In this document: piece by piece, positions 3,158 through 64,000 of the stretch
Numbering within the stretch: position 1 is the stretch's first letter
How the letters are laid out: the number at the start of each line of letters is the position of its first letter
Source of the DNA: Arenicellales bacterium
GTDB taxonomy: Bacteria > Pseudomonadota > Gammaproteobacteria > Arenicellales > JAJDZL01
NCBI GenBank assembly: GCA_965203865.1
Contig: OZ241916.1
Coordinates: forward strand, 934,884 to 998,883
DNA length: 64,000 bases
Direction of reading: 5' to 3'
Notes under the pieces: generated by a model
Database searches by the model: none
What the model was told of the DNA's origin: nothing
The model's input: the letters and a program-made list of their open reading frames with translations, nothing else
Translations under genes and position numbers: made by a program

Positions 3158-3289
3158 GAGTAATTTAGCATTAATTCTAAATTACTCATTAGTATAGTCG
3201 ACTTTACACTAAATTATCGACTAATCATTATTTGTATGCTCAGTAAAAATCTTTCTATTTTTACGGAATCTAACACTAATCTGTTTTCA

Positions 3290-3471
3290 GATTTAAACTT
3301 TGTTGAATGGATAAATTCTATTCACTATTGTCAGTGATTGGACCGTTGTTTGAAGTATTCGCTTTAATCCCTTTTTCATCAGGTCAATTCTTCTCACGCA
3401 GCGAATGGCCACAAAGGACGAAATGAAGGTTCTGTCTTAATCCCTTTTTTATCAGGTCAATCCATCTCACG
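3290..3471. repeat. CRISPR-like direct repeat: two good 35-36-nt copies plus one degenerate copy, period 72-73 nt
   Basis: Copy 1 at 3362-3397 (ctttaatccctttttcatcaggtcaattcttctcac) matches copy 2 at 3435-3470 (tcttaatcccttttttatcaggtcaatccatctcac) at 31/36 positions, with a ~37-nt unique spacer between them. A third copy at about 3290-3325 matches 21/36. The reverse complement reads GTGAGAAG...GGGATTAAAG, which resembles known CRISPR repeat termini. No cas genes are present in the window. Confidence 0.45.
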
Positions 3472-3569
3472 ACTCATTGCAACAGATATGCGATCATTCC
3501 AGCACCACTTGAGCGGCTTGCTGTGATGATTTAATACTTCGGATATGCTCATTTGATTTGATATTTGTT

Positions 3570-4205: not shown

Positions 4206-4265
4206 ATCTTCCTTTAATTACTATTGTTCAAGTAACTTCTATTCCTGATTATTCATGCCATTCGA

Positions 4266-5231: not shown

Positions 5232-5447
5232 ATACGAGCTGAACGAACATCACTTCGCCAGCATTCTTGCAGAACTGGCACTTATACCACTTTGAAGTAT
5301 AAGCGTTTTAATAAAACCTTATCAAAGTAAGTTGGATAGATTGAACTTGCGGAATGTGAGGCACCTCGCACCACGAGACAAGAATAGTTTTTTCACGAAT
5401 TGAAATAGGGTGGATTGGAAATATCGATCAAAACATGGAATTGAATT

Positions 5448-46809: not shown

Positions 46810-47904
46810 ATGAACGAGAATTCAATTTCGATGAAAGGGGGCGGCTACTACTCCCAGCATACGCAGGGTGCCAAGCATGTAGTCAATCGTGCAGGTGTGC
46901 ATGTTCTGGAGCATTGTGCAAAATTGGATATTTCCGACTCGGGTCGTCCATTCACAATCGCAGATTACGGGGCTGCGGATGGGGGAACTTCTCTTGAATT
47001 GATTACTGCAATTGTAGAAAAAGTGCGGGAAAAGGCACCGAATCGGGAAATTCAGGTTGTTTACACAGATCTACCGCACAACGATTTTTCAGCTTTGTTC
47101 AAAATGCTTGACGGGCAAGTATCAGAACTGGAGAGTTATCTTAGCAGGTTCAACGGGGTATACGTCAGCGGTGCCGGTTCATCTTTCTATCAGCAGATTT
47201 TGCCAAGTTCCTCGGTTGATATCGGATTTTCTGCAACGGCGATGCACTGGTTGAGCAGTTTGCCGGGAGTTGTCACCAATCATGTTCACGCGACAGGAGC
47301 CAGCGGGGAGGAGTTGAAAAAATTCAGCGACTACGCGCAGCAGGATTGGGAGACCATTTTGCTGAACCGGGCGAAAGAACTTGCACCGGAAGGCTTGCTG
47401 GTGATGGCAAACTTCTGTATTGATGAAGAAGGCAGATATCTGGGCAACACACAAGGCGCCAACATGTTCGATATGTTTCAAAAACTTTGGAAAGAACTGG
47501 CAGATTGTGGAGTGATTACACATGAAGAATGTCGGACAACAACTTTTCCGCAGTTCTACAAAACACTGGAACAATTTCAAAAACCATTCAACGACCCCAG
47601 CAGCCCTGTCAGTCTAGCCGGACTCAAGCTTGAAACAATCTATTCGGGTGTAACGGAATGCCCCTACCGGGCTGAATTCAATCGCACCGGTGATTCGGTT
47701 GCATTCGCGAATGAATATGTTCCTACGCTTCGCTCCTGGAGCGAAGGTGTGTTCATGGGCGGTTTGGATTCAAGCCGGCCGCTTGCTGAAAGGCAAAGAA
47801 TCGTAGAGGAGTTTTTTGAGAACTACAATTCCATGGTGCGAAAAAATCCGGAAATTCATGCAATGGATTACGTACATGTGTACATGGTTGTAAGCAAGGC
47901 TTGA
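46810..47904 (+). CDS. SABATH-type (Methyltransf_7-like) SAM-dependent carboxyl methyltransferase
   Basis: MKGGGYYSQHT, IADYGAADGGTS, YTDLPHNDF, GSFYQQILP and ATAMHWLSSLP appear in the same order as the plant salicylate/jasmonate carboxyl methyltransferase motifs. Confidence 0.6.
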   Translation: MNENSISMKGGGYYSQHTQGAKHVVNRAGVHVLEHCAKLDISDSGRPFTIADYGAADGGTSLELITAIVEKVREKAPNREIQVVYTDLPHNDFSALFKMLDGQVSELESYLSRFNGVYVSGAGSSFYQQILPSSSVDIGFSATAMHWLSSLPGVVTNHVHATGASGEELKKFSDYAQQDWETILLNRAKELAPEGLLVMANFCIDEEGRYLGNTQGANMFDMFQKLWKELADCGVITHEECRTTTFPQFYKTLEQFQKPFNDPSSPVSLAGLKLETIYSGVTECPYRAEFNRTGDSVAFANEYVPTLRSWSEGVFMGGLDSSRPLAERQRIVEEFFENYNSMVRKNPEIHAMDYVHVYMVVSKA

Positions 47905-47918
47905 ACGCCAATACTGCT

Positions 47919-49334
47919 TCAGGGCAATACAGGGTCTATTGGAAGTCTTTTGTGAATCTCTGTCATTTCTTCAAGCAAGTGGCCTGCGCCAAGTAGCTCT
48001 GCTTCTTTGCGGGGCGGGGCAATGATTTGCAAGCCAACGGGAAGACCGTCTGCGGTAAATCCGGCAGGTACGGACAAGGCAGGGCATCCTGTCAAAGTAA
48101 TCGCGAATGTAATTGCAATCCACTCGTAGTAGGTTTCAAATTTCTTGTCGCCAATCGATTCGACATAGCGCATATCGACATCAAACGGCGGGACAATTGC
48201 ACAAGGACAAACAAGCAGGTCGTATTTCTCAAACAGCTTGCAAATGGAACGATAAATTTTGGCCCGAGTTTTTTCGGCTTTGCCAATATCTTCCGCTGAC
48301 AAATTGAGGCCTTGCTCAATATTCCAGACAATTTCCGGTTTCAAGCGGTCGCGGTGTTTCTCATACTCATTCACCAGATTCGTAGCAAACAGAAAACTTC
48401 GCAGCACATTGAAGGATTCTATCGCTCCGGTAAAATCCGAACAATTCTCTTCCACTACGATATCCAGATCGGAAAACATTTCAACAGCGCGGCGACAAAT
48501 GGTGTCGACTTCGGGATCAGTAACTGTAATTCCAAGATCAGGGGAGTAGGCAATTTGTTTCGGTTTCTGTTCAATTTGCAAGAAATCAACATAAGAAATT
48601 TCATTGCGTTCGTAAGTCAGCGGGTCTGATGGATGATAAATTGCAATGGCATCCAGAAACAGCGCCAGGTCCTGTGTATTTCGTGCAATCGGCCCGTTCA
48701 CATGAAGTGTGTTGAATGGTTGCAGCTTGTCGTCTTGCGGCACTCGTCCCGGACTAGGACGCAATCCGACAACAGAATTGAAACTCGCGGGTGTTCGAAG
48801 ACTCCCGCCCAAGTCACTTCCCGTAGCAAGCCAAACTTCTCCGCTTGCAACTGACGCGCAGGCACCGCCGGATGAGCCTGCCACTGATTTACTGGTGTTC
48901 CAGGGATTTCTGGTTTTCCCGAATACATCGTTGAAGGTGCTTGCTCCGGCACCAAATTCCGGTGTATTTGATTTGCCCATGACAATCGCACCGTTTTGCT
49001 CAAGCACTTTAACGCAAATTTCTGAACGACTGGGAACATAATCCTTGTAAATTACGGAACCGAATGTTGTTCGAATTCCCTTGGTTTCCATAAGGTCTTT
49101 TACCGATATTGGCAATCCACCAAGCCATCCTCGCTTCTGTTCTGAATTGGAGAAGGACATAGCTTTTGCCTTGTCAAGCGCCTGTTCGATACAAGTAGTG
49201 GGCATGGCATTGATTTGAGGCTCCACTTCTTCAATTCGTTGTGCAGAAGTTTCGACAAGCTCCACCGGGGAAATTTCCCGACTGCCAAGCAAAGCCAAAA
49301 GTTCAATGGCTGATTTTTTCAGTAGTTCGTGCAT
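47919..49334 (-). CDS. amidase-signature family amidase
   Basis: AGSSGGACASVASG and GSDLGGSLRTPA. Confidence 0.85.
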   Translation of the reverse strand: MHELLKKSAIELLALLGSREISPVELVETSAQRIEEVEPQINAMPTTCIEQALDKAKAMSFSNSEQKRGWLGGLPISVKDLMETKGIRTTFGSVIYKDYVPSRSEICVKVLEQNGAIVMGKSNTPEFGAGASTFNDVFGKTRNPWNTSKSVAGSSGGACASVASGEVWLATGSDLGGSLRTPASFNSVVGLRPSPGRVPQDDKLQPFNTLHVNGPIARNTQDLALFLDAIAIYHPSDPLTYERNEISYVDFLQIEQKPKQIAYSPDLGITVTDPEVDTICRRAVEMFSDLDIVVEENCSDFTGAIESFNVLRSFLFATNLVNEYEKHRDRLKPEIVWNIEQGLNLSAEDIGKAEKTRAKIYRSICKLFEKYDLLVCPCAIVPPFDVDMRYVESIGDKKFETYYEWIAITFAITLTGCPALSVPAGFTADGLPVGLQIIAPPRKEAELLGAGHLLEEMTEIHKRLPIDPVLP

Positions 49335-50234: not shown

Positions 50235-50435
50235 ATGAAATTGATATTGAAGCTGATTGAACCAATTGCTTGGCTTTGCAGTCGAAAGAGTTTTGCTTTG
50301 GCGCATAAATTAGTGGGGGGGGGGGGTATTCAGGAATACTTGCATATTCGAAAGCCCGGCCCGCCGACTCGCGCTTTCCAAGCACATTGCCTGTTCGCTA
50401 CTGGCGGTGACAATATCAGTATGCATGCTACCTGA
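50235..50435 (+). CDS. 5' ORF with RBS and ATG containing a G12 tract; probable out-of-frame N-terminus of the downstream giant ORF
   Basis: agga RBS 4 nt before the ATG. The ORF encodes MKLILKLIEPIAWLCSRKSFALAHKLVGGGG.. and terminates at 50433-50435, inside the 1990-aa ORF. Confidence 0.55.
   Translation: MKLILKLIEPIAWLCSRKSFALAHKLVGGGGIQEYLHIRKPGPPTRAFQAHCLFATGGDNISMHAT
50315..50326 (+). repeat. G12 homopolymer at the frame junction
   Basis: Counted directly: tagt G12 tatt. It lies inside the 5' ORF and directly follows the TAG (50311-50313) that closes the giant ORF's frame upstream. Confidence 0.95.
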
Positions 50436-53400
50436 TGTAAATGCGGAGATTAGGGGATTTCTAAGTCCGTATAGTGGGAGTAGTATTTATGCATACCAAT
50501 TAGATGGTGCGACGCTTGAGTTAGAAGATTTCCTCCAGCCGCCGGGACGTGGGTTTAAGAACGCTAGTGGCCTCGGTCATTATCGGTTCAAAAGTGGTAC
50601 CGCCCCCTCTGGCCTCTCAATTGCTAGTAAGCGAGTTGACCATAATGACTACTTGTTTTTGACTTTTAGTTGCACCGGCGCCTGCAGAACTGTCTCGTCG
50701 ACTACAACTGTTACCATTGAGGTCAGAAACACTGGATTTCAAGCTAGTGATATTATAGCTGCTGGATGGTATGACGAAGGCTCCTTCACAATCAATCCAA
50801 ACCCCAAGGTGCTGGTCACAAGCAACCCTACCAACAGCAGCACGGTCACGGAGGCGGGCAGCACGTCGACATTCACGGTGCAGCTCGGACAGGCGCCGTC
50901 GGCCAGTGTGACAGTCGCTGTTTCCAGCGGCGACTCCACCGAGGGCAGTGTGTCGCCCAGCACGATGACCTTCACGACCCAGAACTGGAACACTGCGCAG
51001 ACGGTGACAGTAACGGGAGCCAATGACAGTATACAAGACGGCAACGTGAGCTGGAATGTTGTGCTCAATCCGGCATCGAGCGGGGACAGCACGTACAACG
51101 GCTTGTCCAACGTGAATGTGGCGATGACCACCAGCGACGACGAAGGTTCGCCTTCCTTTTCGGTCAACTCGCCGAGCGTGACGGAAGGCGACACTGGCTC
51201 GGTGAACTTGACGTTCACGGTTACGATGAGTCCGGCGAGCACGTCTCAGTACACGGTGAACTACGCCGATGCGGGCACCGGCACGGCGACGTCGGGGACC
51301 GACTACACGGCTATCACCAGTGACACGCTGACTTTTGCGGCGAATGAGACGAGCAAGACGATTACGGTGTCGGTAACGGGGGACACGATAAACGAGCCGA
51401 ACGAGACGGTGGTGGTCACGCTGAGCAACGCGTCGACGGGTTCAACCATAGGGACGGCGAGCGGCACCGGCACGATCACGGACAACGACACGCCGAACTT
51501 TTCGATCAACTCGCCGAGCGTGGCGGAAGGCGACAGCGGCTCGGTGACCATGACGTTCACGGTTTCGCTGAATCCGGCGGGCGCATCGCAGCATACGGTC
51601 GACTACTCTCAAACAGGTGGCACGGCGATGTCGGGGACCGACTACACGGCGGTTTCTTCCGGCAGGCTGACGTTTGCGGCGGGTACGACGAGCCAGACGA
51701 TTACGGTGTCGGTGACGGGCGACACGACGGACGAGGGGGCGAGCGAGACGGTGGTGATTACGCTGAGCAATGCGTCGGCCGGAACCGCCATTTCGACGGC
51801 GAGCGGCACCGGCACGATTACGGACGACGACCCGAAATTCTCGATCAATTCGCCGAGCGTGACGGAAGGCGACAGCAGTTCGGTGAACCTGAACTTCACA
51901 GTGACGCTGAGTGCGGCGGGTGCGTCGCAGTACACGGTTGATTTCGCTGATGCGGGAACCGGGTCGGCGACTTCGGCCGACTACACGATCAGTACTTCTA
52001 GCCCGCTGACGTTTGCGGCGGGGACGACGACCCAGATGATTACGGTGTCGGTGACGGGTGACACGCTGGACGAGGGGGCGAGCGAGACGGTGGTGATTAC
52101 GCTGAGCAATGCGTCGGTTGGAACCGCCATTTCGACGGCGAGCGGCACTGGGACCATAACGGACGACGACCCGAAATTCTCGATCAATTCGCCGAGCGTG
52201 ACGGAGGGCGACAGCAGCTCGGTGACCATGACATTCACAGTGACGCTGAGTGCGGCTGGCGCGTCGCAGTACACGATCGATTTCGCTGATGCGGGAACCG
52301 GGTCGGCGACTTCGGCTGACTACACGATCAGCACTTCTAGCCCGCTGACGTTTGCGGCGGGTACGACGAGCCAGACGATTACGGTGTCGGTGACGGGCGA
52401 CACTTTGAACGAGGGGAACGAGACGGTGGTGGTCACACTGAGCAATGCGTCGGCAGGGACTGTTATTTCGACGGCGAGCGGCACCGGGACGATAATCGAC
52501 AACGACCTGGCATTTTCGATCGACTCGCCGAGCGTGGACGAGGGCGACAGCGGCGACTCGAATAGCCTGGTTTTCACCGTGACGCTGAGTGGGTCGGTTT
52601 CGACGACGCAGACGGTCGAATACGCCGAGGGCAGCGGTACAGCGACTTCGGGAACCGACTACACGGCGGTCACCGGCGGCACGCTGACGTTTGCAGCGAA
52701 TGAGACGAGCAAGACGATTACGGTGTCGGTGACGGGCGACGCGACTGACGAGGCGAACGAGACAGTGGTGATTGAACTGAGCAATGCGTCAACCACGATT
52801 TCGACGGCGACCGGCACCGGCACGATCACGGACGACGACCCGAAATTCTCGATCAACTCGCCGAGCGTGGTCGAGGGCGACAGCGGCGACTCAAATAGCC
52901 TGGTTTTCACCGTGACGCTGAGTGCGGCGAGCTCGTCGTCGCTGACAGTCAACTACGCCCGCACGGGCGGCACGGCGACTTCGGGGACCGACTACACGGC
53001 GATTTCTTCCGGCATGCTGACGTTTACGGGGACGACGACCCAGACGATTACGGTGCCGGTGACGGGCGACGCGATGGACGAGGGTGCGGGCGAGACGGTG
53101 GTGGTTACGCTGAGCAGCCCGTCGGCCGGCACGGGAATCTCGACGATGAGCGGCACCGGGACGATCACGGACGATGACCCGAAATTCTCGATCGATTCGC
53201 CGACGGTGACGGAGAGCGACACTGGCTCGGTGAATATGACATTCACAGTGACGCTGAGTGCTGCTGGCAATTCGCAGTACACAGTCGACTACACAAGTTC
53301 GGACGGGTCTACGAACGGTGCGACTGCCGGTACCGACTACACGGCGGTCTCTGGCACGCTGACGTTTGCGGCGGGGACCACGAGCGAGACGATTACGGTA

Positions 53401-56379
53401 TCGGTGACGGGCGACACGGCCAACGAGGCGAACGAGACGGTGATCATCACGCTGAGCAATCCGTCGGCGGGCACGGCGATTGCGACGGCAACCGGCACCG
53501 GCACGATCACGGACAACGACACGCCGAGCTTTTCGATCGACGATGCGAGCGTGGCGGAGGGCGACAGCGGTCAGACGAACCTGACGTTCACGGTGACGCT
53601 GAGTTTGCAGAGCTCGTCGGCGTTGACGGTGAACTACGCCACTTCGTCGAGCGGCTCGGGTTTTGGGCATGCGACAGCGGGAACCGACTACACGGCGGTG
53701 ACCACTGCGGGCTCGGTGACGATTGCGGCGAACACCACGAGCAGTACGTTTAATATTGTAGTGTCGGGCGACACGACGGCGGAGCCGGACGAGACGTTCA
53801 CGGTGACGCTGAGCGGCAATCCGGCGGGCACGAACCTTGACCCTGACAAGACGAGCGCCACTGGTACGATACGAAACGACGATGCGGGTCTTTCGATCAG
53901 CGATGCGAGCACAGCGGAGGACGGCAACCTGGAGTTCACGGTGACGCTGAGTCCGTCGACATCGTCTCAGGTGACGGTGAGCTACGCTACTTCAAGCGGC
54001 ACCGGGTCTGGACATGCGACTGCGGGGAGCGACTATACGGCGATATCCGCCACCACGCTGACGTTTGCGGCGGGAGCGACGGGGAGTGCCTTGAGCCAGA
54101 CGATTACGGTTCAGGTGACGGACGACACGGTGAACGAGCCGGACGAGACGCTGACAGTGACACTGAGCAGTGCATCCGGTGCGGGCTTGGTGGATGCCAC
54201 GGGCACGGGCACGATCACGGACAACGATACGCCTAGCTTTTCGATCAACTCGCCGAGCGTGAACGAGGGTGACAGCATGGCGAGCCTGGAGTTCACTGTT
54301 TCACTGAGTCCGGCGAGCTACCAGGAGACGACGGTGAACTATGCGGTTACGGGTGGGACGGCGACTTCGGATACCGATTATACGGCGCTTGCCGCCAGTA
54401 CCACGCTGACGTTTGCTATAGGGGATACGAGCCAGACGATTACGGTGTCGGTGACGGACGACCTGGATTTCGAGGAGAATGAGACCGTGGTGATTACACT
54501 GAGCGGTGCGTCGCCGGGTACGACGATTGCGACGGCGAGCGGCACCGGGACAATCACCAATGACGACCCAGGCATTTCGATCGCTGATGCGACGGTTGAA
54601 GAGGGCGATGAGGACGATAGGAACATGCTGACGTTCACGGTGACGCTGTCGCCGGCGCCGACGGACCAGGTGACGGTCGACTATGCCAGTTCGGACGGGA
54701 CTACGAATGGTGCGACTGCGGGTACCGACTACACGGCGGTCTCCGGCACGCTGACGTTTGCGGCGAGTGAGACCAGCAAGCCGATTTCGGTTTCAGTGAT
54801 CGGGGATATCCTGTCGGAGCCGAACGAGACGGTAGTGGTGACGCTGAGCAACCCGAACCCGTCGTACACGCTGGTGGAAGCCAGTGCCATGGGCACCATA
54901 ACGGACGACGACGAAGTGGTTCAGAACGAGCTGGACATGGAGATTGTCGCTGAGGTTGCGCGTGAGGTTACCACGAGCGTGGTGACTGCGGTCAGCAACC
55001 GGGTCGGTTCGGTGGTTGGCGGCGTAGCAATTGCCCCGCTGGTCAATGAGCCGTCGGTTGGCATGCCTTCAACGGGGGGATTTGCAGACAGTGGACTGCT
55101 TTCGATTCTGGCGCGTTCAGTGCGGCACGACCGCGAGCGAGACGGCGGACTGGAGCGCTCGGAGATGTCGCTGTATCGTTCACTGGACGGTGCGAGCTTT
55201 GCCTACTCGCCGAGTGTGCTGAGTGCGAACGGCTCAGCCGGTGCGACCGGCGGGCATTCCGGTATCCTGACTGTGTGGGGTTCGGTCGACTATCGCAAGA
55301 TGTCGGGAAGCGGCGAGGGTGCCTTGACATGGGATGGCGAGCTGGCGTCTTTGAATATTGGCACTGACACGCTGAGCGAGTCCGGGGTTCTGTTCGGCGT
55401 GGCGGTCGGTGCGTCGAAGGGGAGCTTCGGCTATCAGGGCAGTATCAGCGGCAGTAGCGGCTTGCTGAAGATGCAGGTAACAACGCTGAATCCCTATGTT
55501 GGCTGGTCGGTGTCTGAGTCGGCGAGCCTGTGGGCATCGGTCGGCTATGGCAGGGGCAAGATTAACTACAACGACAATGAGGCTGAAGCATCCTCGAGCA
55601 AGATGAAGCTGGCCAGTGCGGCTTTTGGAGGTCGCTATCGCCTGTTTTCGGCTGATGGCTTAGCAGACGGCCGCTTGGTTCAGGTAGATCTCAAGGGCGA
55701 GGCCTGGGGTCTGCGGAACAAGGTTGAAGGAGACGAGCAGCGTCCGATGGGGTCGAAGTCCCGGGCACACGGAATGCGCCTTGCGATTGAGAGGCATAGT
55801 AGCGGTGTGCTTGAGTCCGGCGCTTTTATGGTGTTGTCGGGCGAGGCCGGCGTACGCTGGGACGGCGGTGACGGCGACACCGGAGCCGGCTTTGAGATGG
55901 GCGGCATGGCGGACTACAGCGATTCTGCAACCGGCATGAAGATGGTTGCGACGGCCCGCGTCTTGGTGGACCATGAAAGCGACAACCGGAAGGAGTGGGG
56001 CGCCGGCTTGACTGTGGGATGCAGGATTGATGGTCGAGAGACTGGCATGACTTACAGGTCTTCGCTGTCGCACGGGCAGGCGGAAAGCGGTGTTGAATCT
56101 CTATGGGACAGTAGCGCCGCCAGTCGCACATCGTCCGAAGAGAAGAGTTTGGCGACGCGTCTGGACGCAGAGGTCGGCTATCGCTTTTATGGAAGCAGCG
56201 GCCTGCACACGCCGTATGTTGGATTCGGAGCGGAAGACAGCAGCAGGCGCGACTACCGTGTTGGCATGCGCTATGCGGGCGGGTCGGCGATATCTTCGGG
56301 TATGGAGTTTGAGCGTCGCGAAGCGGGCAGCAAGCAGCCTGACCACAGGGTCATGCTGACAGGGCGGATGAACTGGTAG
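50407..56379 (+). CDS. giant surface protein: divergent N-terminal region, 11 Calx-beta-like repeats and an autotransporter-like C-terminal beta-barrel
   Basis: 1990 aa counted from a GTG. The repeat unit is FSINSPSV.EGDSG..FTVTLS..YTVDY..GTATSGTDYTA..LTFAAGTTSQTITVSVTGD...E.NETVVVTLSN..GTGTITDDD. The C-terminal ~400 aa show alternating beta-strand patterns and end in ..MLTGRMNW. The same frame stays open upstream to 50314 and encodes ..ARRLALSKHIACSLLAVTISVCMLPDVNA|E. Confidence 0.8.
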   Translation: MTISVCMLPDVNAEIRGFLSPYSGSSIYAYQLDGATLELEDFLQPPGRGFKNASGLGHYRFKSGTAPSGLSIASKRVDHNDYLFLTFSCTGACRTVSSTTTVTIEVRNTGFQASDIIAAGWYDEGSFTINPNPKVLVTSNPTNSSTVTEAGSTSTFTVQLGQAPSASVTVAVSSGDSTEGSVSPSTMTFTTQNWNTAQTVTVTGANDSIQDGNVSWNVVLNPASSGDSTYNGLSNVNVAMTTSDDEGSPSFSVNSPSVTEGDTGSVNLTFTVTMSPASTSQYTVNYADAGTGTATSGTDYTAITSDTLTFAANETSKTITVSVTGDTINEPNETVVVTLSNASTGSTIGTASGTGTITDNDTPNFSINSPSVAEGDSGSVTMTFTVSLNPAGASQHTVDYSQTGGTAMSGTDYTAVSSGRLTFAAGTTSQTITVSVTGDTTDEGASETVVITLSNASAGTAISTASGTGTITDDDPKFSINSPSVTEGDSSSVNLNFTVTLSAAGASQYTVDFADAGTGSATSADYTISTSSPLTFAAGTTTQMITVSVTGDTLDEGASETVVITLSNASVGTAISTASGTGTITDDDPKFSINSPSVTEGDSSSVTMTFTVTLSAAGASQYTIDFADAGTGSATSADYTISTSSPLTFAAGTTSQTITVSVTGDTLNEGNETVVVTLSNASAGTVISTASGTGTIIDNDLAFSIDSPSVDEGDSGDSNSLVFTVTLSGSVSTTQTVEYAEGSGTATSGTDYTAVTGGTLTFAANETSKTITVSVTGDATDEANETVVIELSNASTTISTATGTGTITDDDPKFSINSPSVVEGDSGDSNSLVFTVTLSAASSSSLTVNYARTGGTATSGTDYTAISSGMLTFTGTTTQTITVPVTGDAMDEGAGETVVVTLSSPSAGTGISTMSGTGTITDDDPKFSIDSPTVTESDTGSVNMTFTVTLSAAGNSQYTVDYTSSDGSTNGATAGTDYTAVSGTLTFAAGTTSETITVSVTGDTANEANETVIITLSNPSAGTAIATATGTGTITDNDTPSFSIDDASVAEGDSGQTNLTFTVTLSLQSSSALTVNYATSSSGSGFGHATAGTDYTAVTTAGSVTIAANTTSSTFNIVVSGDTTAEPDETFTVTLSGNPAGTNLDPDKTSATGTIRNDDAGLSISDASTAEDGNLEFTVTLSPSTSSQVTVSYATSSGTGSGHATAGSDYTAISATTLTFAAGATGSALSQTITVQVTDDTVNEPDETLTVTLSSASGAGLVDATGTGTITDNDTPSFSINSPSVNEGDSMASLEFTVSLSPASYQETTVNYAVTGGTATSDTDYTALAASTTLTFAIGDTSQTITVSVTDDLDFEENETVVITLSGASPGTTIATASGTGTITNDDPGISIADATVEEGDEDDRNMLTFTVTLSPAPTDQVTVDYASSDGTTNGATAGTDYTAVSGTLTFAASETSKPISVSVIGDILSEPNETVVVTLSNPNPSYTLVEASAMGTITDDDEVVQNELDMEIVAEVAREVTTSVVTAVSNRVGSVVGGVAIAPLVNEPSVGMPSTGGFADSGLLSILARSVRHDRERDGGLERSEMSLYRSLDGASFAYSPSVLSANGSAGATGGHSGILTVWGSVDYRKMSGSGEGALTWDGELASLNIGTDTLSESGVLFGVAVGASKGSFGYQGSISGSSGLLKMQVTTLNPYVGWSVSESASLWASVGYGRGKINYNDNEAEASSSKMKLASAAFGGRYRLFSADGLADGRLVQVDLKGEAWGLRNKVEGDEQRPMGSKSRAHGMRLAIERHSSGVLESGAFMVLSGEAGVRWDGGDGDTGAGFEMGGMADYSDSATGMKMVATARVLVDHESDNRKEWGAGLTVGCRIDGRETGMTYRSSLSHGQAESGVESLWDSSAASRTSSEEKSLATRLDAEVGYRFYGSSGLHTPYVGFGAEDSSRRDYRVGMRYAGGSAISSGMEFERREAGSKQPDHRVMLTGRMNW
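51157..54915 (+). repeat. 11 tandem ~339-bp coding repeats (Calx-beta-like units)
   Basis: The period is visible in the sequence and in the 339-nt spacing of antisense ORFs (51303, 51642, 51981, 52320, 52659). Units 51838-52176 and 52177-52515 are roughly 90% identical by eye. Confidence 0.9.
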
Positions 56380-56428
56380 ACAGGAAAGAATCGGCACAGA
56401 CTTCTGTTCAGACGTTGCAGAAGGCCCC

Positions 56429-56456
56429 CTCCAGGTTGAATTCATTCAACCTGGAG
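56429..56456 (+). terminator. 12-bp perfect hairpin downstream of the giant ORF
   Basis: ctccaggttgaa-ttca-ttcaacctggag begins 50 nt after the stop. The trailing tract is not strongly T-rich. Confidence 0.5.
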
Positions 56457-56724
56457 AGGACTTACTACCATTTTGCAAATTCATTATGCTGTGCTAATTG
56501 CTAATGTGCATGTTCGCCTTTGTCGGCGAAAAAATGTCCGCTTCATGCCTTCGATTCAGACCTTGAACCTTGCTGCGCATTAACAGCATTGAATTGCACC
56601 GGACAACTAAGAAAAACTCAGCACTGATGTTTGCATCCCTCTGTATTCACTTGCCATAATACAGTTTTCCCCACTCTTAAGCGGGATTCTAGACGAAATT
56701 TGTACCGATTCAGCTATGACACCA

Positions 56725-58161
56725 GGTTAAGTCTTAAAATTCCTGTAAAAGTCTAATTGGGGGGATCGAGAGGTCCTCTGTGCGATTACAATTTAATAAT
56801 TTCACATTTTTACAACAAAAGAATCGAGGAGGACCTCGCGATGAGTAGAATGATAAGTCCAAGCCAGGAGAAAAAGCAAGAGCTGAATGAGATGATTGAG
56901 AATGGTTTCGCTGGCGAAGGGGATGTTTTTCGGGAGTTTATCAAATTGACAGTGGAAAGCGTGTTTCAGCAGGCGCTGGAAGATGAGCAGAGTGAGTTTT
57001 TGGATCGAGGGCGCTACCAGCGCAAGTCGGAGCCGTCGACGGTGCACCGCAACGGCTACGAACCGGGGCATTTGAAGACTGCGGAGGGAGTGATGCAAGT
57101 GAAGTTGCCGCAGGTTCGCGGTCTGGGCGAGCCGTATCGCTCGCGGTTGTGGAGCGAGATGCCGCGTACCAGCGAATCGCTGAAGTCGCTGGTGGTGGAG
57201 ATGTATGTGAACGGCATGTCGACCCGCGACATTGAGCATTCGATGGAGGCGGCGCTGGGCGAGTTTTCGTTGTCGAAGAGTACCGTCAGTCGCCTGTGCG
57301 AGTCGCTGAGCGAGGACTACGAGCGTTTCAAGGAGCGCGACTTGAGTGGCTACGACGTGGCGTATTTGTTTGTGGATGCGGTGTACGAGCCGTTGCGTCG
57401 TCACGGCACCCGCAGCGGTGTTCTGTGCTGCTGGGCGATTTGCAGCGATGGCAGTCGGGTGCTGCTGGACCTGACCTTGGCCAACAGCGAGAGCAAGGTA
57501 TCGGTGATTGAGTTTTTTCAAGGGATGATTCGCCGGGGTCTTCAGCCGCCGCTGACGGTGACCACCGATGGTGCCGGGGGACTGATGGCGGCGGTGGAGG
57601 AGACGTGGCCGCGCACCTTGCGAGTGCGCTGCTGGTTTCACAAGATGCAGAATCTGCGGCAGAAGGTTCCGCCGAGCTTGTGGCCGGAATTTCGGCATCG
57701 GGTGACCGACTTTCGGGATGCACCGGATGAAGCCGAGGCTCGTCGCCGGCTGGAATCCATCCAGGCCGACTATGGCCGCGAGTTGCCCGAAGCCTTGCGT
57801 TGCCTAACCGACGACCTGGAAGCTTCGATGAACCATTTGGAGGTTCCGCCGCGGCACCGGCAGAATGTTCGCACGGTGAATCTGGTGGAGCGCAGCTTCG
57901 TAGAGGAGCGCCGACGAACCAAGGTGATCCCGCATCTGTGGGGCGAAAGAGATCTGACCAAGCTGGTGTATTCGGTGCTGATCCGATTGAGCGAACGCTG
58001 GTGCAAGCGCCGGTACTCGGAATCGGAAGAATGGCAGATCCGAGAGCTGCGCATGCGACTTTATCCAGAGCAGGAGGCGAGAAAACCCGTGCCAAGAACC
58101 AGAACTCGCAGAAGTGCGGCGAAAGCCGCCTAGACTTTTACAGGAAATTAGAGACTTGACC
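56725..58161 (+). mobile_element. IS256-family insertion sequence
   Basis: 1437 bp. The 31-bp imperfect terminal inverted repeats are ggttaagtcttaaaattcctgtaaaagtcta (56725-56755) and the reverse complement of 58131-58161 (27/31 match). One transposase ORF; its stop codon lies inside the right IR. Confidence 0.85.
56841..58133 (+). CDS. IS256/Mutator-family transposase
   Basis: 430 aa from the ATG at 56841, which follows a gaggagg RBS. The N-terminal FREFIKLTVESVFQQALEDEQSEFL..RNGYEPGHLKT is characteristic of the family. Confidence 0.85.
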   Translation: MSRMISPSQEKKQELNEMIENGFAGEGDVFREFIKLTVESVFQQALEDEQSEFLDRGRYQRKSEPSTVHRNGYEPGHLKTAEGVMQVKLPQVRGLGEPYRSRLWSEMPRTSESLKSLVVEMYVNGMSTRDIEHSMEAALGEFSLSKSTVSRLCESLSEDYERFKERDLSGYDVAYLFVDAVYEPLRRHGTRSGVLCCWAICSDGSRVLLDLTLANSESKVSVIEFFQGMIRRGLQPPLTVTTDGAGGLMAAVEETWPRTLRVRCWFHKMQNLRQKVPPSLWPEFRHRVTDFRDAPDEAEARRRLESIQADYGRELPEALRCLTDDLEASMNHLEVPPRHRQNVRTVNLVERSFVEERRRTKVIPHLWGERDLTKLVYSVLIRLSERWCKRRYSESEEWQIRELRMRLYPEQEARKPVPRTRTRRSAAKAA

Positions 58162-58658: not shown

Positions 58659-58910
58659 CTATCCGCCTTTTAGTGGTGGAATTATTGATACCCTGTCTGT
58701 CTCTTTAAGAACAAATGAATCTCGTTCCGAAGCCGGAACCATTTCACCATTGACCGATAGAAGATAGCCTTGCTGAGCTGGAAAACCCAAATGCTCGATC
58801 AAGGTTGCGATGGTTGCATTTCCATTCAACTTGACTTCGATTTCACTGCCGTCAGTATTTTCAGGCAAATACTTGCTCAGAGTGCCGACAAGCTTGACTG
58901 ACACTTTCAT
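58659..58910 (-). CDS. MoaD/ThiS-family ubiquitin-like sulfur carrier
   Basis: 83 aa with a C-terminal diglycine (..IIPPLKGG). It starts 3 nt after the AOR stop. Confidence 0.7.
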   Translation of the reverse strand: MKVSVKLVGTLSKYLPENTDGSEIEVKLNGNATIATLIEHLGFPAQQGYLLSVNGEMVPASERDSFVLKETDRVSIIPPLKGG

Positions 58911-58913
58911 GAT

Positions 58914-60737
58914 TTACGAGAGTCCCAAACGCTCAAGTGTTTCGTTAGTGGGAACCCCCTCTTCTGTCCAACCGCGAAGCTCATAATACTCTGGCAGCAT
59001 TTTGTTCAGTTCGTTTACCTTGCCTTTCGCCATTCCTGATTTGGCAGGTTCATTCAGCAACCTCGGTGGTAGTGAATCATCCTTACTGGTCAATCCTGCG
59101 GCGAGATTAAACTGTCGTTCAAGATTCCAGATCCGCTCGCCTGTTTCATACAGGCGTTCCACTGTCCAGTCGCCTTCGCAGGCAGCATCAATCTGCTGCT
59201 GAAAATCTGTAATCTTCCATCCCGACAGTGTGAACCAGCACAGTCCAGTGGAATCAATTAAAGAAATCTTGTCCTGAGATTTCTTGCACGGCAATGCCTT
59301 CCCGCCTCCGGTCTGATCTTCCATGTCGGGGCCAAATACATCATGCTTCATATGGCATGCGCCTCGACTGCTAGTTGCATAGCCAAGTCCCATACCTTGC
59401 AATGCTCGAGAATCATATCCGGCAAATTCCTGTCCTTTTACTGTCATTGAAAGCTCTGGATGTCCGTATTTCTCACACAGTCGCTTGGACCCCAATCCAA
59501 GAACCTTTCCAAATCCTTCATATTTCCCTGTTTTTTCTGCCATCACTGTAAGTGCTTCGGCATTTCCAAAATTCAATGGGATTCCGTCTGTATCCTTATC
59601 GGTAATTACTCCCATTTCATACAGTTCCATTGCGGCTGCGAGTGTACCGCCAAAAGAGATTGGGTCCATTCCGTGTTCGTTCATTAAAAATCCGGCGAAG
59701 GTCAGTGCATCAATATCATCAATACCGCAATCAGGTCCGAACGCAAATGCTGTTTCGTATTCCAGTCCGCCGCTTGCATGCCAGTATTCTGGACGATTTT
59801 TTATAGTAAAGTGGTCTTTGTCAATATGCGAAATGCGACCGCACGCTATGGTGCATCCAAAACAGGCTTTATTGGTTAGCAGGTTGCGATGCCCATTTTC
59901 ACGAACTGCCGTCATTGCTTTCGGATTGATATTGTCAACACCCTCAAATTGAACTTCCTTGAAATTTCGGGTGGGCAGTCCTCCAAACTCCTGCATGGCA
60001 TCAATCATCGCATTGGTCCCATACTCCGTTAGTTCACCAACATCTGTACTCGCTGCCAACTTTGCCTTGGTTTCCTTGACGACTCCCATAAACCGCTTCG
60101 GATTGTCCACTTTTACCCCAACTGTACCCCGAACAGCAATCGCCTTAAGATTTTTCGAGCCCATTACAGCTCCCACACCTGAGCGTCCTGCTGCCCGGTG
60201 CAAGTCATTAACAACACAGGCAAAGCGTACGCAATTTTCACCAGCTACCCCGATTGAAGCCACTTTGATCAACGGATCCTGATGTTCAGATTTGATCCAA
60301 TCCTCTGTTTCCCACACGGATTTGCCCCAAATGGGGTCTGCTGGAATAATGTCGACTTGATCATCAACAATATGCAAATAAACCGGATGAGGTGCTTTCC
60401 CTTCAAGAAGTAGCAAATCGTAGCCTGCAAATTTAAGTTCGGCGCCAAACTTCCCTCCAGAGTTTGAGCATGCCACTGCATTTGTAAGTGCGCCTTTCGT
60501 GATTACAGCATACCTGCCGGATGTGGATGCCATAGTTCCTGTAAGAGGGCCGGTTGCAAAAATGAGAACATTTCCGGGATCCAATGCATCTACCGATGGG
60601 TCCATGTTTTCATAAAGATACTTTGTACCCAGTCCTCGCTCACCCAGGTACTGCTGTGCCCACTCCATATTAAGCGGTTCAATTTCGGATGTTTGATTCG
60701 TGAGATTCACTCGCAAAATATTTCTTTGCCATCCCAT
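58914..60737 (-). CDS. tungsten/molybdopterin aldehyde:ferredoxin oxidoreductase (AOR family)
   Basis: 607 aa. The N-terminal ILRVNLT..EWAQQYLGERGLG is AOR-like, and CFGCTIACGR is a cluster-binding cysteine motif. Confidence 0.85.
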   Translation of the reverse strand: MGWQRNILRVNLTNQTSEIEPLNMEWAQQYLGERGLGTKYLYENMDPSVDALDPGNVLIFATGPLTGTMASTSGRYAVITKGALTNAVACSNSGGKFGAELKFAGYDLLLLEGKAPHPVYLHIVDDQVDIIPADPIWGKSVWETEDWIKSEHQDPLIKVASIGVAGENCVRFACVVNDLHRAAGRSGVGAVMGSKNLKAIAVRGTVGVKVDNPKRFMGVVKETKAKLAASTDVGELTEYGTNAMIDAMQEFGGLPTRNFKEVQFEGVDNINPKAMTAVRENGHRNLLTNKACFGCTIACGRISHIDKDHFTIKNRPEYWHASGGLEYETAFAFGPDCGIDDIDALTFAGFLMNEHGMDPISFGGTLAAAMELYEMGVITDKDTDGIPLNFGNAEALTVMAEKTGKYEGFGKVLGLGSKRLCEKYGHPELSMTVKGQEFAGYDSRALQGMGLGYATSSRGACHMKHDVFGPDMEDQTGGGKALPCKKSQDKISLIDSTGLCWFTLSGWKITDFQQQIDAACEGDWTVERLYETGERIWNLERQFNLAAGLTSKDDSLPPRLLNEPAKSGMAKGKVNELNKMLPEYYELRGWTEEGVPTNETLERLGLS

Positions 60738-60764
60738 AGTTACTGCACCTCTCGCTTTGATTAA

Positions 60765-61403
60765 TTATTTTGCATCCGGTTGATATTCCGGCCTTGCATT
60801 TTCAAACGCTTCCAGTTCATTGCATCTTGCATCGATTTCAACCAATTTCGGATACGCTGATAAATCGCAATTGAACCGTCTGGCATTGGCAACTTGCGGA
60901 ACCAAACAGACATCAGCAATCGTCGGTGTATCGCCATAGCAGTACTTGCCGGTTCGACCATCTGATGCAAGCCTTGATTCCAATGCTCCTAATTCTACGG
61001 AAATCCAATACTGGTACCAATCGTTCCGCTGGTCATTGTCAATGGTCAAATTATAGTCCAAGTAATTCAATACTCTTAAATTGTTCAACGGATGAATGTC
61101 GCAGGCAATTGATAATGCAATTGCCCGGACGTATGCCCGGGCTGGTTCTGTTTCAGGAAGAAGCGACGGTTCGGGATACTTGTCTTCCAGAAATTCCAAT
61201 ATCGCAAGAGACTGAGTTAAAACGGTATCACCAATTTTCAGTACCGGTATCAAGCCTTGCGGATTCATATCCATAAATTCTTCATTTCGCTGCTCTTGCT
61301 CTCGAAGATTGATCGAAATATTTTCATATTCAATTCCCTTCAAGTTGAGCCCAATTCTTACCCGATAGGCAGCAGAACTGCGAAAATAGCCGTACAGTTT
61401 CAT
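60765..61403 (-). CDS. maiA: zeta-class glutathione S-transferase (maleylacetoacetate/maleylpyruvate isomerase)
   Basis: MKLYGYFRSSAAYRVRIGLNLKGIEYE..NPQGLIPVL..QSLAILEFLEDKYPEPSLLP. Confidence 0.8.
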   Translation of the reverse strand: MKLYGYFRSSAAYRVRIGLNLKGIEYENISINLREQEQRNEEFMDMNPQGLIPVLKIGDTVLTQSLAILEFLEDKYPEPSLLPETEPARAYVRAIALSIACDIHPLNNLRVLNYLDYNLTIDNDQRNDWYQYWISVELGALESRLASDGRTGKYCYGDTPTIADVCLVPQVANARRFNCDLSAYPKLVEIDARCNELEAFENARPEYQPDAK

Positions 61404-61404
61404 C

Positions 61405-61827
61405 TCAATTCGTTGTTTTGACCAGGTAATTCAGAAAGTCGCCAGGCAGTTCCATTATTTGAATTGCTTTATTCTCGTTTTCGCCAGTTTTTGCCCAGAA
61501 TCTCACTTCGTATCCAAGAACGCAGTCTCTACCGGAAACTGCAAGTTTGTGTCGTACAGTAAATGTTTTCTTTGACCACGCGTCAACTTTACTTGCAACG
61601 GTTACAATTTCCCCCCAACGCATTGGATGCTTATACTCGGCATGGGTTTCAATCAGCGGAAAACCGACAATGTTCAACTCTGTAATCATTTTAGCCTGTC
61701 CAAAACCATTTGCTTCCATCATATCTTGAGTGCTCAAGTCGAACCAGCGATAAATATTGGGATAGAACACAATGCCTGCCGGGTCACATTCGCCCCATTC
61801 AACTTTGTGATGCAATTCATGCTTCAT
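61405..61827 (-). CDS. hotdog-fold acyl-CoA thioesterase (4HBT/YbgC-like)
   Basis: 140 aa with VEWGECDPAGIVFYPNIYRWFD. It lies 1 nt from maiA and overlaps the ligase gene by 11 nt. Confidence 0.75.
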   Translation of the reverse strand: MKHELHHKVEWGECDPAGIVFYPNIYRWFDLSTQDMMEANGFGQAKMITELNIVGFPLIETHAEYKHPMRWGEIVTVASKVDAWSKKTFTVRHKLAVSGRDCVLGYEVRFWAKTGENENKAIQIMELPGDFLNYLVKTTN

Positions 61828-63355
61828 CGCGAAATGTTCCTGTAACTATTTGTTGCAATTCGTGCCGCCGAATTTTACCAGTGGCAGTACGCGGCATGGA
61901 ATCAATAATACGAATCCAGCCCGGCACCTGCAATTTGGAAAGTCGGCTAGCAATGAATTTTCTCATGGAGACCCCGGCATGTTCAAGATCTGTGTTGGCA
62001 ACCGGTGTAAAAAACAGTGCTGGACGAACAGTTTCGCCGGCATCTGCGGCACTTACAACTGCAACTTCTTCGGCCAGCGCAAACTCTGTTGCAACTTTTT
62101 CAATCTCTCGCAAGTGTACCCACTGACCTGACATCTTGATGAGTTCATCCTCCCGTCCCAAGTGATACCAGCATCCATGTTCATCTTGACGAAAAATGTC
62201 ACCGGTAACGAAGTATCCGTCTTGAAGTCGCTTCCTTGATTCGTCAGCTTGATTTTCGTAGTGGAGAAACGTGTATGGATGCCGTACTCGAAGAATACCA
62301 TCCTTGCCAGAATCCGGACCAAGCTCCTCATCCCCCCGATACAATTTCGCTACAGTACTCGGCAAGAGCCTTCCAACAGAGTTGGGGGGATAATCTGGCA
62401 ATGCTCCTACGAAGCACAAGAACAAAGTTTCAGAGCAACCGTATACATTCACAATATTTTTGCCGGTTTTTTCAAGCCATTGTGATTGAATTTCCTGGGG
62501 CAAATGCTCGCCGGCGGAAACAAAGTGTTCAATCTTTGAAAAAGATTGCAAAGCCCTGTCGTCGAAATCCCGAAGCAGGTTTCGATAAACCGTAGGGACC
62601 GCGAAAAACGCCTTGAGATTTTCTCTTTCGATGACCGAGTTAGCTGTTTCGGGCGTGATCCAGTTGAGATGCAAATATACGCTGGCACCAAGATACAAGG
62701 GTGCCAGTAATCCGTTCGCCAGTGCATAGGCAAATGTCAACTTGGAAGTACAGAAGATTTCATCGCCGGGACTCAAGCCCAGCACTTCACTATGAAAATA
62801 ACAGCACTGTTCCAACTCTTTATGTGTGTGAACAATCCCTTTGGGATGGTTTGTAGAACCGGATGAAAATACCCAGAGTGCTTCGTCTGTTGAATTCCGA
62901 TTGATAGCGAAATCAATTTCCTGAATGTGCCTTTGCTCAATCGGTTGAAAAATTCTTTCAATCGGGTACAGTTGAATGTCCGCGTTGCTTAGCGAAATAC
63001 CCGCTTTACAGGTTTCTGAATTCGCAGAATCACAAATCAGTGTCCTTGTTTTGCTGGTTTTCAGTACATGCTCAATATCTGAAGCTTCGTATCGGGTGGA
63101 GACAGCAATAGCTACTGCACCGATATTCAAAACTGCCAAGTATGCAGCGACAAACTGAGGCGTGTCCAAGCAGCACAATACTACCCGGTGATTTGGACGA
63201 ATTTTTGCATCGTGCATGTATTTACTTGCGCAGCAGATCTGAAAAAAAAGTTCTGCATAGGTCCAAATTCCTTCTTCCCATCGTAAAGCCGGCAAGTCTT
63301 GAAATCGGTTTAAGCGATCAGAACTGAATATTTGCTTGACTATGTTCATCGGCAT
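61817..63355 (-). CDS. AMP-dependent aryl/acyl-CoA ligase (benzoate-CoA ligase-like)
   Basis: 512 aa with the FSSGSTNHPKGIVHTH AMP-binding motif and the C-terminal GKIRR. Confidence 0.8.
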   Translation of the reverse strand: MPMNIVKQIFSSDRLNRFQDLPALRWEEGIWTYAELFFQICCASKYMHDAKIRPNHRVVLCCLDTPQFVAAYLAVLNIGAVAIAVSTRYEASDIEHVLKTSKTRTLICDSANSETCKAGISLSNADIQLYPIERIFQPIEQRHIQEIDFAINRNSTDEALWVFSSGSTNHPKGIVHTHKELEQCCYFHSEVLGLSPGDEIFCTSKLTFAYALANGLLAPLYLGASVYLHLNWITPETANSVIERENLKAFFAVPTVYRNLLRDFDDRALQSFSKIEHFVSAGEHLPQEIQSQWLEKTGKNIVNVYGCSETLFLCFVGALPDYPPNSVGRLLPSTVAKLYRGDEELGPDSGKDGILRVRHPYTFLHYENQADESRKRLQDGYFVTGDIFRQDEHGCWYHLGREDELIKMSGQWVHLREIEKVATEFALAEEVAVVSAADAGETVRPALFFTPVANTDLEHAGVSMRKFIASRLSKLQVPGWIRIIDSMPRTATGKIRRHELQQIVTGTFRDEA

Positions 63356-63610
63356 TCAAAGCGATAACTACTCCTCCAAATCGTTCTTTAATAACTGGTG
63401 CGCAACCCCAAAATGCTTCGGCTACTTATACGTCGGATTTTGGACTTGCTAATTCTACTATCATTTACTTTTGAGGGTACATACCAGTATGCAGTTCCCC
63501 CGATGACCGTATTAAAACAAATCAACTCAATTGTTCTGGTCAAGTTCTTTTTCTACAAAAAACAGCAATCGGATGGCATTTTTTGGCGAGGGGATTTGAG
63601 CGGTGAATTT

Positions 63611-64000
63611 CTATGCAGATTGCTGAGCAATGCTTGAAGCCGCAAGTTTTATTTCATTCCATGCTGCCTCAACATGTACTTTTTCTGTCCAGATGGCTCC
63701 AATAGAAAAACGAATTACGTATGTATCGTTCAATACTGCATGGGTCAAAAATAATTTACCCGATTCATTCAAACTTTCAAGAATAGTCCGGGTTGCTTTA
63801 TTGCCGTCTTTGTGATGAAACAGTACCAAGTTCAGTATTGGCGGCTGAAACAACTCAAATTCGTTATCAGTTTCAATCCAGTTGGCAAATTCAATCGCCA
63901 ACTGGCAGTGCATTCGAATATGTACGCGAAGTCCCTCAACTCCGTAGTGCCGAATCACAAACCATAACTTCAGAGAGCGGAATCTGCGTCCCAGCGATAT
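63611..64000 (-). CDS. pyridoxal-dependent aromatic-L-amino-acid decarboxylase family, C-terminal part (runs off the window)
   Basis: The C-terminal ~115 aa align by eye with the DDC/AADC C-terminus (HIRMHCQLAIEF..LFLTHAVLNDTYVIRFSIG). The frame is open to the window edge. Confidence 0.7.
   Translation of the reverse strand: MSLGRRFRSLKLWFVIRHYGVEGLRVHIRMHCQLAIEFANWIETDNEFELFQPPILNLVLFHHKDGNKATRTILESLNESGKLFLTHAVLNDTYVIRFSIGAIWTEKVHVEAAWNEIKLAASSIAQQSA

Follow-up and report, generated by a model that had tools for sequence, protein, structure and literature searches.

An AorB-type aldehyde oxidoreductase gene set apart from aorA and aorC, behind a predicted gentisate-type aryl-CoA gene trio in Arenicellales

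We analyzed a stretch of 64,000 nucleotides (nt) from an Arenicellales bacterium (contig OZ241916.1, positions 934,884 to 998,883 of the forward strand; hereafter the window), and in particular five minus-strand genes close to its 3' end that encode an aryl-coenzyme A (CoA) ligase, a thioesterase, a zeta-class glutathione S-transferase (GST), a tungsten-type aldehyde oxidoreductase (AOR) and a MoaD-like protein. We propose, with a probability of roughly 0.6, that the unit joins two modules, a gentisate-type trio of ligase, thioesterase and GST and an aorB-moaD pair, with the AOR partner subunits AorA and AorC made elsewhere and the AOR feeding the ligase. The ancestral aorA-aorB-(aorC)-moaD operon is split in the clade to which the window belongs: aorA and aorC stand together at one site, and aorB-moaD stands behind the GST gene.

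Read in the direction of transcription, the unit begins with a gene for a benzoate/hydroxybenzoate-type aryl-CoA ligase (61817..63355, minus strand; 512 amino acids; Pfam AMP-binding). It is followed on the same strand by the gene for a hotdog-fold thioesterase of the 4-hydroxybenzoyl-CoA thioesterase (4HBT) class I type (61405..61827; 140 amino acids; Pfam 4HBT_2), the zeta-class GST gene (60765..61403; 212 amino acids; NCBIfam maiA, PDB NagL), aorB, the gene for the AorABC-type catalytic subunit (58914..60737; 607 amino acids; Pfam AFOR_N and AFOR_C, PDB 8C0Z_A), and the MoaD/ThiS-family sulfur-carrier gene (58659..58910; 83 amino acids with a C-terminal Gly-Gly; Pfam ThiS). By open reading frame (ORF) coordinates, the ligase stop and the thioesterase start overlap by 11 nt, and the following gaps measure 1 nt (thioesterase to GST), 27 nt (GST to AOR) and 3 nt (AOR to MoaD). 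An earlier note on this DNA, made from the letters alone, had listed these ORFs and junctions. We reproduced all of them exactly on the minus strand, and the Pfam, NCBIfam and PDB matches agree with the gene identities that it had given. The five genes are real and not chance ORFs. Their G+C content of 44-45% is in line with the remaining window.

The sole gap in the unit with space for a promoter is the 255-nt intergenic leader 5' of the ligase gene (63356..63610, minus strand), which we presume to be the promoter region. Consensus scans for promoters and terminators returned sites no more frequently than in shuffled sequence, the leader region included, and an Rfam scan of the leader gave no match, neither a molybdenum-cofactor-type riboswitch nor any other RNA. 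With the promoter and terminator scans at chance level, it is the spacing and conservation of the five genes that suggest that they are probably co-transcribed.

We examined the type and the cofactor ligands of the AOR. The protein matched Pfam AFOR_N (267 bits, residues 6-205) and AFOR_C (427 bits, residues 219-606) over its full length. Its best PDB match was 8C0Z_A, the AorB of Aromatoleum aromaticum (807 bits, 60% identity), far ahead of Pyrococcus AOR (1AOR, 527 bits), FOR (1B25, 256 bits), and WOR5 and BamB (194 bits). The structure-database scores group the protein with AorB, and judged by sequence it is a member of the bacterial AorB clade and not of the archaeal AOR, FOR, WOR5 or BamB groups. 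We took the list of ligands from the AorB structure paper (PMC10413684) and found each of them on alignment: the [4Fe-4S] Cys ligands C292, C295, C299 and C500, the metallopterin and Mg residues R75, N92, G94, R181, A182, D358 and D495, and the catalytic E328 and H462. All of these residues are conserved in the window protein and in all 81 aligned sequences, so that the loss of pterin and cluster ligands, which the earlier note had named among the findings that would refute its reading, was not observed. The protein is a predicted tungsten-bis-metallopterin/[4Fe-4S] aldehyde-oxidising subunit. Arndt et al. 2019 (PMC6365974) describe the AorB-type subfamily as little sensitive to oxygen and as present in mesophiles that are aerobic or denitrifying, and the A. 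aromaticum AOR has a broad substrate range (PMC6365974).

The small gene 3' of aorB encodes a protein that matched Pfam ThiS (PF02597, 47.9 bits) and NCBIfam thiS (39.9 bits, cutoff 37.45) and whose C-terminus reads PPLKGG. Most of the 160 related loci described below have a homolog 3' of the AOR gene. The A. aromaticum operon includes the MoaD-like genes aorD and aorE (Arndt et al. 2019, PMC6365974), and we presume that the window protein is their counterpart, a maturation factor for the tungsten cofactor.

To place the unit among related loci, we scanned genomes with the AOR, which returned 80 loci (AOR 74-92% identical to that of the window), and metagenomes, which returned 80 more (70-79%). 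The window together with loci L001-L030, whose AORs are 81-92% identical to its own, is referred to here as clade A. The group is gammaproteobacterial, consists mostly of Arenicellales metagenome-assembled genomes (MAGs), and was monophyletic in a neighbour-joining tree of AOR. Outside clade A, every assessable locus (125 in total: 50 from genomes and the 75 from metagenomes that had enough upstream DNA) carried aorA directly 5' of the AOR gene. Between the AOR gene and moaD, aorC was present in 26 of the 50 genome loci and, among the metagenome loci, in 23 of the 60 that could be assessed. Within clade A, neither aorA nor aorC was found within 10 kb of the AOR gene in any of the 31 loci, the window and its 30 relatives, and none of the 31 carried a CxxCxxCxxxCP ferredoxin motif within the same distance. 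The 64-kb window contains no gene for an AorA-like ferredoxin or an AorC-like flavoprotein anywhere, and the earlier statement that no ferredoxin or flavin adenine dinucleotide (FAD) subunits are nearby is correct for its whole length.

The slot of aorA directly 5' of the AOR gene is filled by the GST gene in 26 of the 30 clade-A relatives, and the GST-AOR spacer measures 25-28 nt and holds a conserved ribosome-binding site in 26 of the 30. All five genes stand in the order ligase-thioesterase-GST-AOR-MoaD in 20 of the 30 species genomes. The five-gene order is therefore not unique to this genome, and its recurrence fits the operon-like coupling that had been proposed from the spacing.

Two observations concern the distribution of the clade and the aorA-linked loci. 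In the scan that gave loci L081-L160, no public metagenome contig carried an AOR more than 79% identical to that of the window, and the aorA-less clade is seemingly confined to sample types outside the coverage of the metagenome collection; a ligase-based metagenome scan gave no match, and a 94%-identical ligase is known only from one 2.1-kb contig. A search for exact matches to the AOR sequence of the window yielded no record. Separately, a conserved ORF of 88-95 amino acids, which has no assigned family and does not end in Gly-Gly, stands directly 5' of aorA in aorA-linked loci (9163-9450 in L031, 1422-1688 in L035 and 2102-2389 in L038).

Homology searches with Arenicellales AorA located the genes that are absent from the neighborhood of aorB. 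On the L028 chromosome (3,291,220 bp), aorA is followed 34 nt on by aorC, without aorB, and the pair lies 1.57 Mb from aorB-moaD. The L002 chromosome carries the same pair, also without aorB, and across the two chromosomes the distance from aorB ranges from 0.7 to 1.6 Mb; a third large contig likewise bears an aorA-aorC pair without aorB. The stand-alone pairs occupy positions 10001-11743 in L164, 10001-11747 in L165 and 5506-7248 in L166. Their products matched 8C0Z_C (253 bits) and 8C0Z_E (415 bits) of A. aromaticum by a wide margin over any other entry, which makes them true orthologs of AorA and AorC. When AorC served as the query, the best matches formed a separate group of 66-91% identity, and close AorC homologs are apparently present on about eight further clade-A chromosomes (L006, L012, L013, L016, L017, L024, L029 and L030). 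The pair on the relatives' chromosomes indicates that aorA and aorC in clade A have been relocated and not lost, and we infer that the pair is present in the window's own genome as well. Only six near-fixed substitutions part clade-A AorB from aorA-linked AorB, as expected if the interface with AorA and AorC is still in use. We also considered a 7-residue deletion relative to A. aromaticum AorB as a signature of partner loss and rejected it, since the deletion is common to the aorA-linked relatives.

These results modify an earlier assessment that the AOR, its own MoaD-like partner and the aerobic-type surroundings, with no linked ferredoxin or FAD genes, form an unusual combination. The absence of linked electron-transfer genes stands, although its weight is reduced by the finding that AorA and AorC are encoded as an unlinked pair in the relatives' chromosomes. 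The aerobic context is no anomaly, because the AorB subfamily has low oxygen sensitivity and occurs in aerobes and denitrifiers, and neither is the MoaD partner, because aorB normally has a MoaD-like gene next to it.

The neighbors of the stand-alone pairs were recorded separately. The aorA-aorC pairs of L164 and L165 have a divergent gene for a CobW-type GTPase on their 5' side and a metallophosphoesterase-family gene on their 3' side. Genes for a branched-chain-type ABC transporter follow aorA-aorC in L164-L166, and genes of the same type flank the ligase-thioesterase clusters in L161 and L162.

The other module of the unit comprises the ligase, thioesterase and GST. The ligase matched Pfam AMP-binding with 195 bits; its best NCBIfam match was the 3-hydroxybenzoate-CoA ligase HbdA (296 bits, below the cutoff of that model) and its best PDB match was the benzoate-CoA ligase 2V7B. 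The thioesterase matched Pfam 4HBT_2 with 52 bits, and its best PDB matches, with some 70 bits each, were the 4-hydroxybenzoyl-CoA thioesterases 5WH9 and 1BVQ. Its motif e-c-D-P-A-G-I-V aligns with g-d-c-D-P-A-G-I-V of 1BVQ, and in our own reading the Asp of DPAGIV, query residue 15, would correspond to the catalytic Asp17 of 4HBT. The paper that names the catalytic Asp also places gentisyl-CoA thioesterase in the same subfamily (PMC516016).

The GST matched Pfam GST_N (59 bits) and passed the NCBIfam maiA model TIGR01262 (281.6 bits against a cutoff of 171). Its N-terminal sequence reads FRSSAAYRVRIGL, which we take to be a zeta-class motif of the SSxxxRxRIAL type. The best PDB match was the maleylpyruvate isomerase NagL (2V6K/2JL4) with 214.7 bits, compared with at most 167.5 bits for maleylacetoacetate isomerases. 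Maleylpyruvate is favored as the substrate because NagL scores higher and because relatives carry a gentisate dioxygenase, and the GST is most likely a glutathione-dependent maleylpyruvate isomerase, as far as its sequence can tell.

The clusters of the relatives supplied further evidence for a gentisate-type pathway. A match to the gentisate 1,2-dioxygenase equivalog (534 bits against a cutoff of 442) was found in the cluster of 14 of the 30 relatives. The 5' extension of their clusters contains a BenC-like reductase, a short-chain dehydrogenase/reductase (SDR), a 237-amino-acid PaaA-like di-iron protein and the gentisate 1,2-dioxygenase, together with a 172-amino-acid protein without a family match and a DyP peroxidase. 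In L003, the reductase, SDR, PaaA-like and dioxygenase genes span 1873-5629, 5' of the genes for DyP, ligase, thioesterase and GST, and the same genes were found in L005-L009, L011-L013, L015, L016, L024 and L025. The PaaA-like protein and the reductase may together make up an aryl-CoA hydroxylase not yet described, in place of SdgC-type enzymes. Fumarylpyruvate hydrolase was not among the annotated cluster genes of the relatives; no search was aimed at FAH-family genes. CoA-dependent conversion to gentisate is an established type of pathway (PMC4600096, PMC516016), and the suggestion in the earlier note that the genes recall such a route agrees with the proximity of the GST to NagL, the 4HBT-type thioesterase and the dioxygenase in 14 relatives.

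The nearest ligase homolog outside the clade is 37% identical and is also followed by an overlapping 4HBT thioesterase gene. Its cluster contains a 552-amino-acid enoyl-CoA hydratase-family gene, a 473-amino-acid gene without a Pfam hit, and a regulator gene with helix-turn-helix and shikimate-kinase-like domains, which by domain content and size would be BoxC-like, BoxB-like and BoxR-like, respectively. The recurrence of the ligase-thioesterase overlap in this presumably box-type cluster outside the clade points to the pair as an inherited module. Two other loci with more distant or truncated ligase homologs (L167 and L168) were rearranged or too short to inform. The L167 locus (2161988-2183427 of a 4.25-Mb chromosome) is undergoing rearrangement: besides a truncated ligase and a phage-type integrase, it holds two to three copies of the SDR/PaaA-like/dioxygenase triplet.

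The proposed sequence of reactions follows from the two modules. The ligase would turn an aryl acid into aryl-CoA, whose hydroxylation would presumably fall to an oxygenase that the window does not show; the PaaA-like di-iron protein and BenC-like reductase of the relatives are candidates for it. The thioesterase would then free gentisate, a ring-cleavage dioxygenase would convert it to maleylpyruvate, and the GST would isomerise maleylpyruvate to fumarylpyruvate. In the second module, aorB and the MoaD-like gene, detached from the canonical aorA-aorB-(aorC)-moaD operon and set behind the GST gene, would be complemented by AorA (a polyferredoxin, 4x[4Fe-4S]) and AorC (FAD, NAD+) from the separate aorA-aorC pair. 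AorABC most likely still works as a complex that would oxidise aldehyde to acid and pass electrons via AorA and AorC to NAD+. The substrate would most likely be an aromatic aldehyde, for instance a hydroxybenzaldehyde, whose acid product would then be activated by the ligase. We infer the identity of the substrate and the metabolic link from AOR to ligase, and consider functional coupling of the two modules plausible.

A more far-reaching version of the proposal is that the split is itself functional, with AorA-AorC as a standing scaffold of 'electron wire plus NAD+ reductase' to which AorB, made on demand from the aromatic operon, would dock, so that tungsten-dependent aldehyde oxidation would become a co-regulated step of oxygen-dependent gentisate ring cleavage. 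We hold this version to be doubtful and offer it tentatively. If true, the arrangement in these marine Arenicellales MAGs would represent a naturally occurring case of the modular exchange of subunits, on which Winiarska et al. 2023 had only speculated.

Several observations weigh against the joined-module proposal, and many of them favor the main rival, an explanation that we regard as unlikely but deserving serious attention, in which AOR-MoaD is an autonomous module for broad-spectrum aldehyde detoxification that landed beside the aromatic operon in the ancestor of the clade and shares at most a transcript with it. The closest relative, L001, has 3.5 kb of inserted DNA with transposase and methyltransferase genes between GST and AOR; in L002 only a relic of the GST 3' end is left next to the retained AOR-MoaD; and L028 and L030 carry AOR-MoaD alone, without ligase, thioesterase and GST. 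The persistence of AOR-MoaD without the trio in these three loci, together with the L001 insertion, argues that the AOR is independent of the trio. Among the 125 loci outside clade A, none had homologs of the aromatic-pathway query genes beside the AOR. Within the clade, the AOR is far better conserved (81-92% identity to the window protein) than the GST (59-68%) and the ligase (42-53%), which suggests that it evolves under its own constraints. A convergent aminotransferase gene and an aldo-keto reductase gene, which are separate transcription units, flank 24 of the 30 clade-A loci at about the same frequency as the operon, and synteny at such depth is thus not specific proof of functional coupling. 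The window itself lacks the dioxygenase, hydroxylase/oxygenase, reductase, SDR and DyP genes of the relatives' cluster and shows no fumarylpyruvate hydrolase gene, and ligase and thioesterase alone would form a futile cycle. An autonomous role would also agree with A. aromaticum, in which the AOR is induced on several substrates and dedicated dehydrogenases bear the main flux (PMC6365974). What speaks for the joined modules instead is the GST-AOR spacer, too short at 25-28 nt for a terminator and a promoter and maintained in 26 of 30 species at family-level divergence; in addition, the move of aorB from its own electron-transfer genes into the operon suggests selection for co-regulation.

The absence of aorA, aorC and the ferredoxin motif within 10 kb in all 31 loci would also be expected if clade-A AorB acted on its own, as a monomer or homodimer in the manner of archaeal AOR, with a soluble ferredoxin, flavodoxin or other acceptor, and if aorA-aorC served otherwise. 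Single-subunit AORs exist (PMC12096430), and two of the six near-fixed substitutions, at A. aromaticum positions 306 and 510, flank [4Fe-4S] Cys ligands at the electron exit, a post hoc and weak observation. We consider this explanation improbable. At least 10 clade-A chromosomes keep the aorA-aorC pair, which has no aorB next to it in the three loci examined directly; the branch that leads to clade A did not accumulate substitutions in a burst; and three aorA-linked sequences likewise have Trp at position 510.

A further explanation concerns the gene upstream of the leader. The 3' part of a gene of the aromatic-L-amino-acid decarboxylase (AADC) family lies at 63611..64000 on the same strand, cut by the window end and 255 nt from the ligase gene; it is a neighbor outside the conserved unit. 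Its product (the last 128 amino acids, aligned to human AADC residues 353-474) matched Pfam Pyridoxal_deC with 51 bits, and its best matches were animal and plant aromatic-L-amino-acid decarboxylases (101 bits with human AADC). The catalytic-loop position at which Tyr would mark a decarboxylase and Phe an aldehyde synthase falls beyond position 64000. In a scheme that builds on the sketch in the earlier note, an AADC-family aldehyde synthase would supply an arylacetaldehyde to the AOR, and ligase, thioesterase and GST would feed the homogentisate (maleylacetoacetate) pathway. The strand and upstream position of the gene and the score of the GST above the maiA equivalog threshold agree with this route, but we give it very little credence. 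No counterpart of the AADC gene was found in any of the 160 related loci, and the gene occupies the position of the relatives' DyP peroxidase; these findings and the 255-nt gap speak against its membership in the pathway. In addition, the ligase is of the benzoate-CoA and not the phenylacetate-CoA type, the GST is nearer to maleylpyruvate isomerase, and the relatives have a gentisate and not a homogentisate dioxygenase. The AADC gene may be a lineage-specific acquisition.

We surveyed the remaining window with Pfam, covering 36 other ORFs (35 ORFs of at least 150 amino acids and two segments of a 1990-amino-acid repeat ORF; an 810-amino-acid ORF at 27747-30179 was left out). It is an ordinary gammaproteobacterial chromosome with genes for trigger factor, clpP, clpX, an Mrp antiporter and ABC transporters, and with genes of the lipoyl-synthase, quinolinate-synthase (NadA), ferrochelatase and isopropylmalate-synthase (HMGL/LeuA) types. 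No tungstate/molybdate transporter and no moa or moe genes were found among these ORFs of the 64-kb window. Directly 3' of moaD, at the position of the relatives' convergent aminotransferase and aldo-keto reductase genes, an island at 50407-58133 has a G+C content of 55-62% in a background of 41-48%. Within it, a transposase gene of the IS256/Mutator family (56757-58133) comes after the 1990-amino-acid ORF with Calx-beta repeats, and the island is probably a foreign insertion. A SABATH-type S-adenosylmethionine-dependent carboxyl methyltransferase gene (46810-47904, plus strand; PF03492, 141 bits) adjoins an amidase gene (47919-49334, minus strand). SABATH methyltransferases are mostly a plant family that acts on salicylate, benzoate or jasmonate, and they are unusual in bacteria. 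An IS605 OrfB/TnpB-type gene, with a Cas12f1-like TNB domain and an OrfB_IS605 domain, lies at 17105-18085 on the minus strand.

The joined-module proposal bears on the physiological role of bacterial AorB-type enzymes, which in A. aromaticum seemingly back up the NAD(P)-dependent aldehyde dehydrogenases. The position of aorB, fixed behind an aromatic ligase, thioesterase and isomerase, gives a concrete and testable hypothesis on substrate and regulation. The split further highlights that operon structure alone is unfit for inferring the subunit composition of AOR-family enzymes, and the occurrence of a tungsten enzyme in apparently aerobic marine bacteria, so far represented only by MAGs, raises the question of tungsten supply.

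The closest known system is AorABC of A. aromaticum EbN1 (aorABCDE; PDB 8C0Z; PMC6365974, PMC10413684). Its AorB is 60% identical to the window protein with the same tungsten-cofactor, Mg and [4Fe-4S] ligands, a MoaD-like gene lies 3' as do aorD/aorE, and true AorA and AorC orthologs occur in the window's relatives. It differs in that clade-A aorB-moaD stands apart from aorA-aorC, behind the GST gene in an aromatic-acid operon, and in that the window has one MoaD-like gene where A. aromaticum has two. The trio resembles the sdg genes of Streptomyces sp. WA46 and the gentisyl-CoA thioesterase cluster of Bacillus halodurans BH1999 (PMC4600096, PMC516016), in which gentisate-pathway genes are likewise accompanied by genes for an aryl-CoA ligase and a thioesterase of 4HBT class I; the relatives of the window likewise have gentisate 1,2-dioxygenase in the same cluster. 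Unlike these systems, the window is without the dioxygenase, and no tungsten AOR is known in those clusters. There is also no SdgC-type hydroxylase here, and the relatives have the PaaA-like di-iron protein and BenC-like reductase instead. NagL of Ralstonia sp. U2 (2V6K/2JL4), the top structure match of the GST over its full length and zeta-class like it, sits in a CoA-independent naphthalene/salicylate-to-gentisate operon. The box-type benzoyl-CoA clusters share a benzoate-CoA ligase with an overlapping 4HBT thioesterase, but the window has no box-type genes, and its ligase-thioesterase pair is followed by GST and aorB. Literature searches found no paper that links AOR to the gentisate pathway (one paper with both terms does not connect them) and none with both 'Arenicellales' and 'tungsten'. 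The AorABC enzyme system and the CoA-dependent gentisate pathway type are thus already known, and what is new here is the genomic variant in which the aor operon is split.

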